A stretch of 62,983 nt of DNA, filler included, from Collodictyon triciliatum (Eukaryota): assembly GCA_043381765.1 (NCBI GenBank). It is 14 parts of 14 records of this genome, joined end to end, with 100 filler letters (N's around TTAATTAATTAA, not from the genome) between each part and the next. Parts side by side here need not be neighbours in the genome. Positions count along the whole stretch, not along the records: positions 26,496 to 30,807 come from JBHJMP010006247.1; 13 more parts are not named here. The stretch is one strand, 5' to 3'. The position numbers were made by a program, and so were the translations under genes. Positions within the stretch are counted from its first letter, which is position 1. Every line of letters starts with the position of its first letter. The notes below the pieces were generated by a model. That model searched no databases, was not told where the DNA came from, and saw only the letters and a program-made list of their open reading frames with translations. This document shows positions 26,989 through 62,983 of the stretch, one piece after another.

Positions 26989-29900
26989 TTAATCCAACAA
27001 CGGGTCAGATAATCGTTTTCCATTCTTCAGATTTTTCATCTTGACCAATTTTTGCTTGATTTTGCCACTTTTGAATAGAGGAATCACAATAGCGATTGAC
27101 GCAAAATAAAGCAGCCATATTGAGTTCATTCCAATAAGCAGAGCTGTAATCCACGATTGCGAGTCAAACAGAGTCGACATGAGCGAAAGGAAGAAGGACA
27201 AAAAAATAATGTAGAGGCTGGACACCTCCATTTGATTTTCGATTTTCGAGTTGTAAGGCTTATACTCTTTTTGCATCCAAATTGAGCTCTAATAGTTTGT
27301 GCTTGATTTAATATTTAATGCTCAAAAAATTATCTGATATTACGTCATATAAATAAATATTTAATCAACCTGAATAACGATGATGAGAAGCACGAAGAAA
27401 ACCGCTGGGCTTGTGTATGGAATGTCACTGAGCACAAACGAAAAAGCGATGCGGCGTGCGATTATGACAAACTCCCAATACTTGAAGGTCTAAATAATGT
27501 TATTCTCATAAATAATTCCCAATTGATAATGCAAAAAGAAGAAAATTGAATTCAGTACCTCTTTGTATGGCAAGTATAGGAATCCATATCGCGCTCCTGG
27601 TTCGTATCCAGGTCTTTCTGCCATGATTTTCACTTTCCACAATACAAAAGCAGGCAGACCGACCAAGAAAAGAACGAAAACTGGGACAGATATTGCAAGC
27701 AGGTTTTGATATTCATCCAAAGCTGGTCTGCATTGAATCCAGGGCTTGAAATTCAAATACCATTTATTCACACCTTTGTCATAAACAGTGCATCCAAAAA
27801 CACCAAACACCTCTCTTGCAACTGAGTAGTATATAAAAAATAGAAGATTCAAGGTGATGAAAACAGCCTGCCAAAATATTTTTTTTAGTTTTGGTAGTAG
27901 TTGAAGCTGAAACTAATATAAAGATTTTACAATTGAATTTATTTTTTCATCCTTACTTTGTTCTGCTTGTGTCCATGTCCAAAATAGTACGTGACTGAGC
28001 CAATAACGATAAAGATTGGCATTCTTGCAAAACTGAACATCAGAGAAGCAAACACATCGTCTACTCCAAGGACACAGGAAAGGTTGGGAAATTGGATTGA
28101 GCCAATCGACGATGAAACATCGATGAAGCTATTTGAATCTTCTGAAAGAACAAGTCCACCAGAAACAATCGACAGTGTTTGCATGTGTAACATGACTATC
28201 CTGAGTTTCGCTACATAAATATTCTGATTAATATAATAAGAATCAAGTGAAATAACTTAATAACATTTACCTGATTTTGATGTCTCTGTGAAATACAGAT
28301 AGCAAACGAACATAAAAAATCCAATCGAACCAATAATCAGAGTTGAATAAATTGTTCCTTTATCGCATTTCACACACGACCTCCCTTGATTTCCGTATCC
28401 ATTCTGACATTTTGAGCAGGCATTACCTTCATAACCCTCTTGACACAGGTCTATGATTTCGACCGTCACACTTGAATTCGAATTTTTCTCTGGAATCGAC
28501 ACATCACATGACTCGCGACGTGGACATGGTAGTATTGATTTCACAGAGGTAATGCTTGGTGAAGCATGACAGAATTTCAAGGACGTTCCATCAAGGCAAT
28601 CACATCCTCTTGGGCATTGAGCGCAATTATTTCCAAAACCCAAAATAACCAGGCAAACATTTACAAAATTCAAAGTCATAGTATTCTGGATTGAAGTCAA
28701 CCTCCAACTCAACCAGACCAGATTTCGAAATAATGGAAGGACAAAGGTAGCGTTTCGTTTCATCTTGGAGATTGAAAGATGTTGTGAAATTCATGAAATC
28801 AGGAAGAAAATTAGCTGTTCCGTGATTCATCGATGTTTCATTCAATCCCAGATACTCAAGCTTTGAAAATCCGATGTATGATTCAGGGATACTTCCAACA
28901 ATCGGATTTCCAGTGAGGTCAAGGGAAGTCCATCTCAATAGATTTGTGAGTTCATCAAGCTTAGTGATGTTGTTTTTCTTAATACTAAACGTTTTTATGT
29001 TAAGAACATAGTTAAAAAGTCTCCAATTCAGTTCCCCATAGAGTTGGTTGTCATCAAGCAAAAGGTTTTCATAAAAGTAATCGTAATTTTCTGAAGCTGG
29101 AACAATGAAAACACCAACGTCTCCTGAAAATGAGTTGTTTCTCAAATCAATCGTCACTAGATTCGGCAGATTCCAGAATAAATCAGGCATGCTTCCAGAG
29201 AATTTATTATGGGATAAAACAAGTGATTTCAGCTCTAGTAATTCCTGAAAATAGGTTGGAACTGTGCCGTTCATTTTGTTCCAAGACAAGTCGATGTATT
29301 TAATTGAAGGCAATATCCAATTTTCTGGGATAGAGCCACTGATTTGGTTTTCGCTCACATCCAGTCTTGTCAGATTCTTCAGATTGAACATCGGTAATTT
29401 GCTTGACAACTTATTTCGGAATAGTACTATTTCCTTGATGTTTTTGCAATATTTGAAATCTGGAATCTCTCCCTCCAAGTGATTCTCATAAACAGAAAAA
29501 ATCTCCAGTTTACGCATATTTGAGGAGTTTGGGATTGTGCCTAAAATTACTCATTAATGTTTGAGGAAATATGAAAATCAAAAGAAATAGAAAGGGAAAA
29601 TAAGTAGAAATCACCATTCAATCTGTTTCTGTCAAGATAAATTCCTAAAGCATTTGGAATTCCACTGAAGTTTGGAACCGTTCCTGTAATATAAAGTTAG
29701 TTTTGTATCAATGACAAATGAAATAATGATTAAAACTTACCATTGAATTGGTTGTTGCCAATAGAAATCCCTAAAACATTTGGAATTCCACTGAAGTTTG
29801 GAACTGTTCCTGTTATATAAAGTTAGTTTTGTATCAATAATACATGAAAATTACTATAAAAACATACCAATCAATTGGTTGCTGGAAAGAGAAATTATAT

Positions 29901-30807
29901 CAACATTTGGAATTCCATTGAAGTTTGGAACTGTACCTGTTGTATAAAGTTAGTTTTGTATCAATAAAACATGATATTATAATTAAAATTTACCATTCAA
30001 TTGGTTGCTGTCAAGAGAAATTATTCCAACATACGGAATTCCACTGAAGTTTGGAACTGTTCCTGTAATATAAAATTAGTTTTTATCAATAAAACATGAT
30101 ATTATAATTAAAATTTACCATTCAATTGATTGCTGTGAAGATAAATTCTTTCAAGATTTGGAATTCCACTGAAGTTTGGAACTGTTCCTGTAATAAAGAG
30201 TTAGTTTTTCATCAATATATGATTTAATGTTTAAAACTTACCGGTCAACTGATTGTTGGAAAGATAAATTCTTTCAAGATTTGGAATTCCACTGAAGTTT
30301 GGAACTGTTCCTGTAATAAAGAGTTAGTTTTCATCAAGAAAACATGAAATCATAATTAAAATTTACCATTCAATTGATTGCTGTGAAGATAAATTCTTTC
30401 AATATTTGAAATTCTGTTGAAGTTTGGAACTGTTCCTGTAATAAAGAGTTAGTTTTTTATCAATAACACATGAAATAATAATTAAAATTTACCGGTCAAC
30501 TGATTGCTGTCAAGGTATATTATTTCAATATTTGAAATTCTGTTGAAGTTTGGAACTGTTCCTGTAACGTAACGTCAGTTTTGTATCAATACCACATGAA
30601 ATAATCATACAAAGTTACCATCCAACTGATTGCTGTGAAGATAAATTCTTTCAAGATTTGGAATTCCAATGAAGTTTGGAACTGTTCCTGTAATATAAAG
30701 TTAGTTTTTATCAATAAAACATGATATTATAATTAAAATTTACCATTCAATTGGTTGCTGTCAAGAGAAATTATTCCAACATACGGAATTCCACTGAAGT
30801 TTGGAAC
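26989..30807 (-). CDS. LRR plus Cys-rich plus multi-TM receptor-like protein, multi-exon, 5' truncated, 1-nt frameshift near 28637
   Basis: Plant-type LRRs (LxxLDLSxNxxSGxIP), CQEGYEGNACSKC, and TM exons with YGFLYLPYK, YWEFVIIARR and YKPYNSKIENQME. Confidence 0.87.
29615..30807 (-). repeat. Tandem array of about 126-nt units, each a 69-nt LRR exon plus a ~57-nt GT-AG intron; 9 full and 1 partial
   Basis: Exons such as 29615-29683 and 29741-29809 encode GTVPNFSGIPNxxxIxLxxNQLx; the introns are also near-identical. Confidence 0.93.
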
Positions 30808-31040
30808 NNNNNNNNNNNNNNNNNNNNNNNNNNNNNNNNNNNNNNNNNNNNTTAATTAATTAANNNNNNNNNNNNNNNNNNNNNNNNNNNNNNNNNNNNN
30901 NNNNNNNTTTTTTTTCTTTTTTTTTTCATTTTTTTTTTCAGTAAAGGTTGCAGCGAAAAGATGCAGGATCGTTCGATATGAACATATGAGGGGATTTAGG
31001 GTTAGAATAGAGTGAAAAGTATGTGAGTGTTTGCAGTTAC

Positions 31041-31927: not shown

Positions 31928-32964
31928 ATGACCGGCTGCTCGGGACGATCCGTCTGCGACTTTCTGCACTCGGCCTACGTCACAGTCCGGTCGGGGCTCT
32001 CTTGTGTCTTCAGTCAACTTTCTTTGGGTTCGCCAGCGACGCAGTATTACCAGACAGGAAGCGATCCGACCTTGGACTACGACGAAAGCAATATCGATCC
32101 AAACTTTGTCAACGAAGGTATGCGACTAACTGGAGTGTGCTTTTTTATATTTCATTATTTTTGTCTTTCGAAAACCTTCTTGCTTTGGTTTGGATTCTGT
32201 GCATGGTTATTATATACATGCAAAACATATTTCCTTTCTTCTCCATGGTACTCTGCTGGCTCGCTTTGGAGTTGGGCCAAGACTTTAGAGTCTGCGGATA
32301 ATTTGTTTCGGCATGAATATCCATTCTTTGTAAGAACATTCCTCATTTTCACTCTTGCAGGTGCGACAAAATGGAAAGCTGATCGCTCTAAATGGCTCTC
32401 TGTTCCAGAAGGACGAGCAAGGTAATAACGATAATATAATTATATGTTTTTCTTCCTATTCTACAAATACATGGTCGTTAGTTTTCCAGAAGTGTCTTCT
32501 TATCTTTCTGACGAACTCTTTCTATGGAAACAGTACTTCCTAAAATCGCTAATAAGGCAGTCAGCATATCACCACACATACACGCTACTAAATATATTGC
32601 TCAATAAACAATCATCCAGGAGAACAGCAAGAACACTGACGCAAGATCAGTTCGACTTGCTGTGGGAAGACATATCATCACGTGATGCGTTGACAGAGCG
32701 CGCTCCGCTTGGCCAGGTCTGAACTCATTGACACGTATAAAAGCGCTATATTTTTTTTTTTGAAGGGGAAGTGTTTGTCCCTTCACACGTGGTTGCATAT
32801 TTGCTCAATATGACAGAGGAAGAAAAAAAGAAAAAAAAAGAGCTAATTCTGTGAATAGACATATCTGCCCACTCTTTCTTTTCTTTCTCAATTCTTTTTC
32901 TCCCTCTGAGCAGGTCGTTAAAGTTTTACACGAAATGTGGGATGAGGACAACGATATCGATTGA
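31928..32964 (+). CDS. DUF4050/Gag1-like clamp domain protein, 4 exons (start may lie upstream in the gap)
   Basis: Spliced FVNE|GATKWKADRSKW..|..FDLLWEDI..ERAPLGQ|VVKVLHEMWDED* resembles the DUF4050 FVNxG..W / PL..V..L...W pattern. Confidence 0.7.
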
Positions 32965-33131
32965 CGTACACATTTCCGGTACATGTGTTGTTTCAGTTGC
33001 TTCTTTAATCTTGGGAGACTTCGCTATCATTTACATTCAAAGGAGCACCACACCTCTTCTATACCTCTACATCGGCTTTTCTTCTTCTTTCTGCCACATT
33101 CATTCGCTCTTTCCTATCACATCATCATCAC

Positions 33132-33233
<102 letters not shown>

Positions 33234-33591
33234 ACACTGAATTCCCCTGGTTAATCGGATTGATTACTTGTATAAAATCCGCCCCTCATTCCCTCCCCAT
33301 TCATCTTCTTTTCCTTCCTCTTCATAGCGATTATAATATTAATAAAAAAAAAAGTGAAACCCTGCACAACACAACCCCACAGACACGCTTTCTTTGTTTT
33401 GCGCCTCAAGCATCAAAGGGAACACGCTTATTTACTCTTTTTTTTTTTATTATTATTATTATTATATTAACAATAACAAGAAAGAAAATCGTAACTATTC
33501 AAAAACGAGACACTGGTTTGTTTTGTTTGTTCCACCACTACTTATTAATACTTTATTATAATTAGACATCAACCCGGGAAGTAAACTCAGC

Positions 33592-45819: not shown

Positions 45820-47200
45820 GTATAGAGCACAAGATTTGTGTTATATCGCATACAAATTACATCTTACATAAGATATTAATCCAAATAAAAATAAACTATA
45901 ATCTCCAATATGAATAGTCCCAGCATCGGAGCCACAATCATGTTAGACAAATGAACTGACTCACGGCTTCGATGTCTAAATATCTTAAGATTCATAGGGT
46001 TTTAAGGAAACATTAAAAAAAATACCAGTACAGTGCGACGCAGTAAAGCTATTTCATACAGCCTCCATTAGAGCGGTAAAAATCCATCCCATGTCTCAGG
46101 AATATCCTCGTTCCGTGCATCTACCGGCACGATAAAAAGACCACTTCATTTGGATACCAAAATCTTCACTACAAAAGCCAAAATTTTAGGGGTTTTTTGT
46201 CAAAAGAATGATAAATATGCTGATATTTTAGTTTATCATCATGTCTCTTACACAACTGAATATAAAGATAATGAAATCATACAGTATATGAGAAATTATT
46301 TAGAATTCAACGCAATATAGCACATCGAATCATTACATAATGAAATTAGAAACAGCATTACATCACGCCATGAAATATCACTATATCACAAGATTTGATT
46401 AACAGCTGCAAAACACCAACAATCGCATCAATTAACACATAAATTGATATACTGTGTTTTTTTTAAATCAAATAATACTAATTGCATACCAGAATGACTG
46501 CACATGTAGGCCAAATGCATTTTTTTAAAATCAATGACCACCTTAGCGCATGATAAAGTAAAGAAATAAAAATATATTCACTCCAACATTAAACACACAG
46601 GCATCCACTTTAGTACTCTCCTATTCAATATTCCATCATATACTCACACATAGCAGAATTCAACAGTCACCTATTGCCGAAATTAGGTTGGATGGCATCA
46701 TACAAATATCTTTCCTCAATGGCTTCGTTCCCCATCCTCAAGTTTTCCTTACGCAGAACCTGTGAGAGGATACATGTAAAAAAATAGATAAAGAAATATA
46801 TTGAAGCTGACCGCAAACGATTATATATGTAGGAATGTGTCGTGCGATATCTCCCACAACATATCCAACCCCTGCTACCCACACAGCCAATCAACCAGTT
46901 GGGACGCCCACCTGACTAACTCGCTATCACTGATTACTTCCCAGTGCTAGCCTCTCCATAGTAGTGTCTTGTCCTACTCGCGTTTGCTCTCTCCCATGCG
47001 CTCCCATCTCGCCCCTTTGTATGGCATAACCTCGCTGCACTATGAATCGAATAAAGGAAAAGAAAAGAACAGAGAGATTGAATCTCGCCTATACTCCTCA
47101 TGCAGGCACAAGAGCAAGGCTGGAAGCTTAACTACAGGATGTGTTTCCTGATAACCGACTACCTCTTCACCACACGGATGTCAAGGAGCGTCTAAATGAA
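45820..47200 (+). mobile_element. Highly decayed LINE ORF2 3' half (family B) interrupted by a family A copy
   Basis: Remnant motifs AQDLCYI (~ADDTAFI), IGATIMLDK (~GGKINYDK) and KYLKI (~KYLGI); 46690-46775 and 47065-47200 match the minus strand of 9385-9640. Confidence 0.5.
46807..47060 (+). mobile_element. Family A non-LTR 3' end copy
   Basis: Closely similar to 26545-26800. Confidence 0.8.
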
Positions 47201-51063: not shown

Positions 51064-51252
51064 TCTTTTCTTTCCCTTTTTTTTTCTTTCAAGCGCTGCG
51101 ATTCCGTTGCTGAACTTGTCCTTCCTTTACTGGTATCTAACAACAAAAGAAAAGATATGAAGGAGAAAGCAAGTGCAGTAAGCATGTGTCGACTGAGACA
51201 CTCGCTTGAAGAATCATGAAAAGTTCATAAATGAATGAAAAATAAATAAATC

Positions 51253-51516
51253 ATATAGGAGCCTTGTATGGGAATGTGTCGTAAGATATCTCCCACGGCA
51301 TATCCAACCCCTGCTGCCCACGCAACCAATCAACCAGTTGGGACGCCCACCTGACCAACTCGCTATCACTGACTTCTTTCCAGTGCTACCCTCTCTACGG
51401 TAGTGTCTTCTCCTACTCGCGTTTGCTCTCTCCCATGCGCTCCTATCCCGCCCCTTTGTATGGCATAACCTCCCTGCACTTTGAATCGAATAAAGGAAAA
51501 TATAGGAGCCTTGTAT
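51253..51516 (+). mobile_element. Family A 5'-truncated retro-insertion with 17-bp target-site duplication
   Basis: ATATAGGAGCCTTGTAT at 51253-51269 and 51500-51516 flanks the repeat. Confidence 0.88.
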
Positions 51517-61600: not shown

Positions 61601-62983
61601 TTTGAGCTTCAAAGGTAAATTTCTCTATTTGTTAAAAAAAATTAAATATTATATTAATACTTGTAAAAACCATGAATAAATATAATATACATGCATTTAG
61701 ATTGGACCAAGTCGTGGAATACTTCCAGAAGGCAGCTGCTATCAGAAAGGAGACGAAGACTATCATATCACTGAAAGACGGCCCGCAAATTGACAACATT
61801 ATCCGCCTCATGAAGGACAAGAAGGAGCATGAAGCCGTTGTTCAGCTTTACAAAACAGCTGCTGTTATACATGGTGAAAAGTCATCCTATGAAAACTGGG
61901 ACTGCTGGGTGGCTTGTGAGACTGCACACCAACACTGCAAAGAAAATAAGCAGCATAACGAAGCAGTGGCATTCTGGACTGAGATGAGAGACAGATTCGC
62001 TGATAAAGTCGGATGGATTCACCCCAGAACGTTAAACTCGTGCGAATACTTGTCCGTTCATTCAAAAGAAATCGGAATCAACAAAGAGCCTGTCGAGTTT
62101 ACAAGAGTCAAGGAATTCATCAGTGAAACTCTTGATGATGCAAAACTGGATGAGAAATGGAATCGTGAGCAAATCATTGCATCATTATTCAGAATTGTCT
62201 ACATGTCAACGACTGATGAGAGCAAATCAAAGGCTGCGTCTAATGCAATCACACTTTTGAATTTCATGAATATTTCATTTGGTGGAATGGATTTATCAAA
62301 CATCAATATTCCACATGCAAATCTCAGTAACTCAATCTTTGAAGGTGCAAACCTCACTGGTGCCGACTTGGATGGTGTTGATTTCACGAATTCGATGCTT
62401 GGTGATTGTGTTTTTGATAATGCGAATATGAATAATGTTAAATTCGGAATTCCTCATTATAAATTAGAAGGTCATACAAGTTATGTCAATAGTGTTTGCA
62501 GTATCCAAGGACCGAATGGTCAAAACTGGCTGGCTTCTGGAAGTCTTGACAAAACAATACGTATTTGGGATGTAGCCACAGGAAACCAAATCAAAATATT
62601 CGAAGGTCACACAAATGATGTCAGGAGTGTTTGCAGTATCCAAGGACCGAACGGTGAAAATTGGTTGGCTTCTGGGAGTTATGATAAAACAATACGTATT
62701 TGGGATGTAGCCACAGGAAACCAAATCAAAACATTAGAAGGTCATACATATGCTGTCACTAGTGTTTGCAGTATTCAAGGACCAAATGGTAAAAATTGGT
62801 TGGCTTCTGGAGGTAAAGATAATACAGTACGTATTTGGGATGTAGCCACAGGAAATCAAATCAATACATTAAAAGGACATACAAATGATATCAACAGTGT
62901 TTGCAGTATTCAAGGACCGAATGGTGAAAAGTGGCTGGCTTCTGGAAGTTTTGATAATACAATACGTATTTGGGATGTAGCCA
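58680..62983 (+). CDS. NPHP3/TEP1-like STAND C-terminal region plus TPR array, pentapeptide repeats and WD40 repeats; both ends truncated
   Basis: YDKTLNEKQV..GHPLYLRIILDEVRVFGVYEKL; 42-aa KLC-type TPR exons; last exon open from 61701 to the window end with AASNAITLLN..DLSNINIPHANLSN and GHT..WLASGS.DKTIRIWD repeats. Confidence 0.88.
62464..62983 (+). repeat. Near-identical 135-nt (45-aa) WD40 tandem repeats, at least 4 copies
   Basis: Units start at 62464, 62599, 62734 and 62869. Confidence 0.95.

Follow-up and report, generated by a model that had tools for sequence, protein, structure and literature searches.

A recently amplified, recombining array of exon–intron leucine-rich repeat units in a receptor-like gene of the freshwater protist Collodictyon triciliatum

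Glycoprotein-hormone receptor and LGR genes encode one leucine-rich repeat (LRR) per exon. Lamprey VLR cassettes are non-exonic donor segments that are copied somatically into an incomplete gene, and in insect Dscam just one of several alternative variants is used at a given position. In human NLRs, strict exonic modularity of the LRRs permits alternative splicing of NLRP3 (Hoss et al. 2019, PMC6642158). Closest to the subject of this report are the LRR arrays of Tetrahymena, in which each exon measures exactly 90 bp and follows a phase-2 intron, with array sizes that peak near 10 exons; their authors propose unequal crossover between exons and state that arrays of this kind had been described nowhere else (PMC6564038, 2019). 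When we searched the literature for tandemly duplicated exons in LRR genes of protists, that paper alone was relevant. Here we analyse a window of 62,983 nucleotides from the genome assembly of Collodictyon triciliatum (GCA_043381765.1), and report a real, recently amplified and recombining exon–intron LRR array in a gene for a receptor-like protein of this understudied freshwater protist. The window consists of about 14 unrelated contigs of about 4.3 kb joined end to end, and the genomic context of the array is limited to 26496-30807 (4312 nt; JBHJMP010006247.1). The window contains 26 runs of exactly 44 N, in 13 pairs, and three longer internal gaps.

Tandem Repeats Finder placed the array at 29599-30807 with a period of 126 (9.6 copies, 84% matches, score 1490), and a two-unit period of 251 nt in the same array scored 1532. 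On the minus strand we found nine complete 69-nt exons, each with AG before and GT after it, and a tenth (unit 1) at the contig end, 30807, that lacks its first 5 nt. All of these exons are phase 1-1, and the final G of each supplies the missing base of a glycine codon in the exon that follows. Nine introns are 54-58 nt long and the last one is 74 nt; all nine aligned introns start with GTA, end with CAG and contain a CTAAC-like branch site (7 CTAAC, 1 CTGAC, 1 CTAAT). The reading frame is open across all 10 units, and each exon encodes one 23-residue LRR with the pattern G-T-V-P-N-F...N-Q-L-x. Because every unit starts and ends in phase 1, units can be gained, lost or exchanged without disturbing the frame. 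The initial annotation of this stretch had claimed at least 10 units of a 69-nt phase 1-1 exon plus an intron of ~57 nt; we confirmed nine whole units and one cut by the assembly, and the GTVPNF-type scaffold and the beta-strand strings that it listed were all present in the translated units. Because the array abuts the contig end, the unit count is a minimum and the gene lacks its 5' part.

The encoded units belong to the LRR superfamily: the core (L/V/I/A)xxIx(L/I)xxNx(L/F) is present in 10/10 units with a 23-residue period. Single array exons are too short for confident assignment by Pfam, and three of nine gave LRR_4 and LRR_8 matches, all below threshold. By contrast, the spliced array aligned with the LRR region (residues 313-521) of P0121, a protein from a Diphylleia rotans transcript, at 43.6% identity (E 6e-53). 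The plant-specific (PS) LRR is a 24-residue unit, LxxLxLxxNxL(s/t)GxIPxxLGxLxx. We considered and rejected this class: although the units carry its NxLxGxxP signature, their length is 23 residues in 9/9 complete exons.

The array described here and those of Tetrahymena have much in common. Both occur in a free-living freshwater protist, are composed of tandem LRR exon-plus-intron units that are recognisable in their nucleotides, have a uniform intron phase that makes the array translationally interlocked and contain about 10 exons. However, the locus does not show the defining features of the Tetrahymena arrays, as its exons are 69 nt and phase 1 rather than 90 nt and phase 2. Its introns are also shorter (~57 nt, compared with ~257 nt in the youngest T. 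thermophila group; PMC6564038), its genetic code is standard, in contrast to that of the Tetrahymena arrays, and the gene belongs to a different, uncharacterised family and has a multi-pass membrane module, whereas most Tetrahymena LRR genes are described as lacking transmembrane domains (PMC6564038). Growth and reshuffling of a binding surface by exon-plus-intron units is a real and precedented process, with the Tetrahymena arrays as its closest published analogue. With vertebrate NLRs the array shares LRR units that are frame-preserving exons, which allows their duplication or skipping; the NLR exons are old and divergent, their introns are long and unrelated and the proteins are cytosolic, whereas here exon and intron were co-amplified recently. 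VLR and Dscam likewise have arrays of LRR or immunoglobulin cassettes with binding-face variation. Unlike in those systems, the units here are serial, spliceable GT-AG exons in one continuous open reading frame (ORF), which does not fit a VLR-like assembly.

The array units are closely related to one another. The mean pairwise amino-acid identity of the nine full units is 69%, with 3-21 mismatches among the 69 exon positions and 4-19 intron differences between units. Intron divergence (p=0.175) is similar to that of the exons (pS 0.217, pN 0.159), and because the introns diverge about as little as the exons, the whole 126-bp module has been recently amplified or homogenised. We also found that two non-adjacent units are nearly identical, as had been claimed: unit 1 (30807-30744) equals unit 7 (30062-29994) at 64/64 exon bases, and their introns differ at 3 positions. 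The match includes a 99-nt exact tract, in which 30807-30709 at the contig end equals 30057-29959, and further exact tracts of 71, 53, 51, 45, 45, 42 and 40 nt join other pairs of units. Unit 1 matches unit 7 throughout the exon and for 35 nt into the intron, after which it is nearer to intron 6 (1 difference) than to intron 7 (3); with 121 positions in all, the probability that the three differences would all land in the last 22 is 0.006. For a GENECONV-like test, we shuffled the polymorphic columns 1000 times and summed the longest concordant runs over 36 pairs. The observed sum was 391, compared with 274 +/- 20 in the shuffles, and 0/1000 shuffles reached the observed value. The mosaic of exact tracts and the result of this test therefore indicate that units exchange segments, as unequal crossover or gene conversion predicts and as the initial annotation had proposed from the near-identical units. 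The patchwork supports an exchange that would be germline, evolutionary recombination. The 99-nt exact repeat is likely to be the reason that the assembler stopped at the contig end.

Established LRR structures have the five x residues of xxLxLxx exposed to solvent on their concave face. By pairwise Nei-Gojobori estimates, dN at these positions in the array was 0.49 and dS 0.18 (dN/dS 2.7), and dN/dS of scaffold codons was 0.11. Minimum event counts were also used so that one change was not counted many times. These assigned 13 of 27.5 nonsynonymous changes to the five concave codons of 23 and 3.5 to 12 scaffold codons, with 32 intron changes over 57 sites, and gave a concave dN/dS of 1.4. The rate of change was higher at the concave positions than in the introns (P=0.025) or at the eight remaining non-core positions (P=0.040). 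Variation is focused on the concave positions, and purifying selection acts on the structural scaffold (GTVPNF, I, L, N). The earlier proposal that variation concentrates on the ligand-binding face thus stands as an enrichment of amino-acid changes at xxLxLxx, but dN/dS above 1 is not significant by event counts. These data suggest positive selection at the concave positions, but a closely similar pattern would be expected if constraint on exposed residues were relaxed.

The array is continuous with the rest of a large gene on the same contig (Table 1). The long exon (1.27 kb) that follows it matched LRR_4 (67.8 bits), LRR_8 (61.8) and LRR_1 (60.2) in Pfam, all above the cut-offs. The LRRs in this downstream part (about 10) have no introns, so only the amplified module shows one intron per repeat. 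Four exons after the long exon encode a hydrophobic multi-helix module that ends at the TAA stop. The multi-transmembrane (TM), receptor-like C terminus that the array had been proposed to feed is thus found on the same contig, and the exon–intron LRR cassettes are real and part of a multi-pass membrane protein. The gene uses the standard genetic code: it terminates in TAA, and a 1414-codon ORF is free of in-frame TAA and TAG. Our spliced model has 978 residues, with X placed at an apparent frameshift. It aligned with Diphylleia rotans P0138 (residues 328-1287 of 1309) at 41% identity over 959 residues and with 15 further family proteins at 35-41% identity. Because the alignment begins at residue 328 of P0138, approximately 330 N-terminal residues are missing beyond the contig end; judging from homology, they comprise a signal peptide and an N-terminal region, and probably more LRRs.

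Table 1. Features of the array-bearing gene and its contig end, in window coordinates
Feature	Coordinates	Strand	Evidence or remark
LRR exon-plus-intron array, 10 units, ~126-nt period	29615-30807	minus	unit 1 cut by contig end
LRR exon 1, 64/69 nt present	30744-30807	minus	64/64 bases equal exon 7; inside 99-nt exact repeat
LRR exon 2, 69 nt, phase 1-1	30619-30687	minus	AG/GT borders; weak Pfam LRR_4, LRR_8
LRR exon 3	30493-30561	minus	AG/GT borders, frame
LRR exon 4	30367-30435	minus	AG/GT borders, frame
LRR exon 5	30242-30310	minus	AG/GT borders, frame; weak Pfam LRR_4, LRR_8, LRR_1
LRR exon 6	30119-30187	minus	AG/GT borders, frame; weak Pfam LRR_4, LRR_8
LRR exon 7, twin of exon 1	29994-30062	minus	AG/GT borders, frame, exact tract
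LRR exon 8	29868-29936	minus	AG/GT borders, frame
LRR exon 9	29741-29809	minus	AG/GT borders, frame
LRR exon 10, then 74-nt intron 29541-29614	29615-29683	minus	AG/GT borders, frame
Long exon: intron-less LRRs, Cys-rich stalk, first TM helix	28271-29540	minus	Pfam LRRs; frame continues from exon 10
Apparent 1-nt frameshift in T4 run, inside Cys-rich motif	28635-28638	minus	frame change
TM-module exon	27957-28210	minus	in frame with homologues
TM-module exon with most conserved stretch	27559-27867	minus	HMMER; 69-nt joint 27490-27558 in X1 and X5
TM-module exon	27370-27489	minus	joints at both borders in X1 and X5 contigs
Last exon, TAA stop at 26989-26991	26989-27288	minus	X1 record 2 crosses 81-nt intron, 13 mismatches/384 nt
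Artificial spacer	30808-30907		N44 + 12-nt linker with stops in all frames + N44; marks contig end

A protein search with the long exon gave 2552 matches at E<=0.001 among 6152 candidates, mostly generic LRR proteins. Among the best 120 of these 2552, three Diphylleia rotans transcripts in EukProt span 98-99% of the query at 36-41% identity. The Diphylleia rotans family (EP00002; P0138, P0121 and P0133; unannotated) shares with the C. triciliatum gene 23-residue G-T-x-P-x-F LRRs, Cys-rich motifs and the membrane module, and its LRR region, CxC...C stalk motifs and membrane module are collinear with those of the family, which places the gene in a Diphylleia-type family. By eye, the Diphylleia LRRs look much less alike than the nine array units here (69%). 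Five Trinity isoforms of one Diphylleia rotans homologue (P0004, P0121, P0124, P0125 and P0122; one 90% cluster) have the same number of LRRs and differ by their N-terminal starts and an alternative C-terminal frame. P0122 carries unrelated upstream sequence that looks like a retained intron. A literature search linking 'Diphylleia rotans' with 'leucine-rich repeat' found nothing.

The membrane module is rare. HMMER searches of 1.84 billion proteins with the conserved TM exon found 61 representatives at E<=1e-3, of which 39 were at E<=1e-10, and the exon was 51-55% identical to its two best matches, P0133 and P0138. No relative was closer than 55% in TM-exon identity, and a second, word-based search gave 3 matches among 110 candidates, the best at 49%. 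A same-species paralogue was not found when the TM exon was compared with longer proteins among 110 candidates. Pfam assigned LRRs to 22 of the 30 TM-exon representatives that were examined, no family to 7 and an unrelated one to 1; among the 22 with LRRs, FG-GAP repeats occurred in 4 and NIDO in 1. The organisms of 10 checked representatives comprised 8 Diphylleia rotans transcripts and 2 metagenome fragments, and two Anaeramoeba ignava proteins also matched the module.

Pfam contains no family dedicated to the membrane module. The C-terminal half of PF06011 (TRP) was weakly matched by 10 of 16 module-bearing proteins, with P0136 and P0177 (33.0 and 28.9 bits) above the 28.5-bit cut-off, and a language-model (protein-atlas) search gave a score of 0.96 to clusters carrying PF06011; the TM exons of the array gene themselves did not match PF06011 at E<=0.01. 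The module of these relatives may resemble that of the fungal Flc and pkd2-like polytopic proteins of PF06011, with the difference that the ectodomain here consists of LRRs. An AlphaFold model of one relative, P0172 (a fragment from a 1459-nt contig), had a pLDDT of 88.9, a pTM of 0.87 and ~9-10 long helices. This model resembled no solved structure: Foldseek gave no match at E<=0.001, and the best VIA-align Z score, 8.6, was in the noise range of helical bundles. Against G-protein-coupled receptors (GPCRs), the best Foldseek TM-scores were 0.13-0.20, and no GPCR rose above noise with VIA-align. On a separate contig of the window (22198-26394, minus strand) is an intron-less ORF of 1399+ residues with 24 Ephrin-receptor-like repeats and DUF7630, which includes five 279-nt DNA repeats with 83-86% identity (24106-25521). 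This ORF ends in the same membrane module as the LRR gene (hhalign 99.1%, E 1e-18, 327 columns), and at least two kinds of ectodomain are therefore combined with the module in this organism.

Related sequences in public data support the exon–intron model. Four runs were mapped to the contig at >=85% identity, which recovered relatives at 85-99% identity. DNA-type metagenome contigs from two studies (X2 and X3) cover an exon plus both flanking introns at 85-89% identity; examples of such stretches, with whole exons and parts of the flanking introns, are 29718-29849, 30066-30209 and 30040-30194. Related exon–intron arrays therefore exist outside this assembly. Contigs from two small runs, X1 and X5, skip exactly 27289-27369, 27490-27558 and 28211-28270, all with GT..AG ends, and the 3' border of the long exon (28271) matches a 60-nt joint in one X1 contig. 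These intron-skipping contigs indicate that close relatives of the gene are spliced as modelled. In the array region, X1 and X5 contigs have the scaffold half of a unit joined directly to exon-like sequence, with no intron. An alternative acceptor joint, 27821/27957, in one X1 contig was rejected as a mis-laid paralogue, as the 46 nt that it removes are not divisible by 3 and one side of the joint comprises just 30 nt. We also scanned metagenomes for two TVPNF-coding motifs one unit apart; none of the 33 loci matched the contig by blastn, and the multi-motif loci were unrelated repeats.

The array very probably arose by germline tandem duplication of a 126-bp exon-plus-intron LRR module in the gene for a large membrane protein. 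According to this model, a module made up of a 69-nt phase-1 exon and a ~57-nt intron would have been duplicated in tandem in the germline, and each exon would supply one 23-residue LRR to an extracellular solenoid. From N to C terminus, the protein would consist of the missing N-terminal part, at least 10 array LRRs, ~10 LRRs encoded without introns, a Cys-rich stalk and a ~9-helix module that may be distantly related to Pfam TRP (PF06011). Units could be gained, lost or exchanged by unequal crossover or gene conversion with the frame kept, and they would be young or kept alike by exchange, because their introns are as similar as their exons. The five solvent-exposed beta-strand positions would carry most of the amino-acid differences. 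Our data show how the array is built, that the gene is homologous to the Diphylleia family, that units share tracts in a mosaic and that the 3' introns are spliced in near-identical contigs; we infer an extracellular ligand-binding role, the mechanism of recombination and any signalling through the membrane module.

Several observations weigh against this model or parts of it. The concave rate is not above the exon-wide synonymous rate (P=0.094), and the split between nonsynonymous and synonymous changes at concave positions does not differ from neutral (P=0.48). The family is known almost entirely from the Diphylleia rotans transcriptome, with no genomic homologue against which to compare the exon structure. 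No public run contains this exact sequence (best share of sampled words 0.10), which leaves transcription of this exact copy unsupported, and the 'RNA?' flag of X1 and X5 is an automated guess. The contig ends in the array with a terminal 99 nt that equals an internal tract, so the number or order of units near the end may be wrong, and a 1-nt frameshift breaks the Cys-rich stalk, so this copy may be a pseudogene. One possible explanation for the last of these is a genuine frameshift at 28635-28638 in a gene that has died within a large family, with units that differ through neutral decay. The frame is broken in the Cys-rich motif by a single extra T, two related contigs (one each in X1 and X3) have one letter fewer at 28635, and homologues read straight across the motif at this site; the ratio at concave positions is, as noted, compatible with neutrality. 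We nevertheless consider such decay doubtful. No further stop or frameshift occurs across ~2.9 kb of coding sequence in 15 exons, and scaffold codons show constraint (dN/dS 0.11). The break sits in a homopolymer of a low-quality draft, where base-calling errors would be common, and as neither the remaining coding sequence nor any splice site is damaged, we tentatively favour a homopolymer error over a true pseudogene.

Collapse or mis-joining of repeat reads at the contig end could instead have produced the terminal twin unit, and perhaps the number and order of the units. Such an artefact would be consistent with a contig that ends inside the array in an exact copy of 30057-29959, and with an assembly that is highly fragmented, into ~4.3-kb pieces. 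The distal units have no independent support either, as bins across 30384-30807 are essentially without cover in the four mapped runs (depth at most 0.95). However, the 99-nt tract has two different right-hand contexts, with the 3 intron differences clumped in the last 22 nt, and the other eight full units differ by 3-21 exon mismatches, so they are not collapsed copies. Together with the related exon-plus-intron DNA in metagenome contigs of two studies, this makes an assembly artefact improbable. We consider it far less plausible still that the locus is programmed to diversify, with combinatorial exon skipping or somatic reshuffling deriving many receptors from one locus. Skipping or duplication of phase 1-1 exons that all have the same length leaves the frame unchanged, variation is enriched on the presumed binding face, and exonic LRR modularity permits alternative splicing in human NLRP3 (PMC6642158). 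Against this, the five isoforms of the Diphylleia homologue differ at their N- and C-terminal ends and not in LRR count, paralogue transcripts placed on the most similar unit account for every joint in the array region, and the units, with their strong splice signals, look like ordinary constitutive exons. Of the earlier suggestion of a putative receptor repertoire diversified by recombination or splicing, the evolutionary part is supported, as germline exchange; evidence that splicing or a programmed process diversifies the receptors was not found. We give very little credence to a working diversification device in this unicellular predator, in which units would be skipped, duplicated or converted often, within clones or between cells.

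The remainder of the window contains several other features. Its 13 spacers lie across 4319-58679, and the pieces between them are apparently ordered by size; adjacent genes are not genomic neighbours. A dispersed repeat of ~256 nt occurs on the plus strand at 26546-26801, 46807-47064 and 51246-51503 (81-92% identity), with AATAAA and an A-rich tail. Its depth reached 1500-2300 in X1 and X5, and poly(A) loose ends start from ~26794-26801, which suggests a short interspersed nuclear element (SINE)-like or otherwise abundant polyadenylated element. An Rfam search of the whole window, including this repeat, gave no match. A plus-strand ORF with pentapeptide and WD40 repeats (61636-62982) runs off the end of the window, and a 135-nt tandem DNA repeat with 86-88% identity lies in its region (62463-62983). 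Additionally, a reverse-transcriptase (RVT_1) fragment at a contig start (8838-9384, minus strand) indicates a retroelement, and an (ATC)n microsatellite of ~40 copies (33116-33233) lies inside an ORF without a Pfam match (32855-33565).

With this array, growth of an LRR solenoid by exon–intron modules would not be peculiar to Tetrahymena, as it would occur in a second, unrelated lineage that uses the standard code. The gene would also represent an undescribed receptor architecture, in which an LRR ectodomain and a Cys-rich stalk are combined with a PF06011-related membrane module that has 61 representatives among 1.84 billion proteins. If the array were a diversification device after all, many LRR ectodomains would be displayed on a TRP-like channel module, a protist analogue of variable LRR receptors. 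Properly assembled, the locus could serve as a test case for repeat evolution, in which the effects of recombination and selection on a binding surface might be traced.

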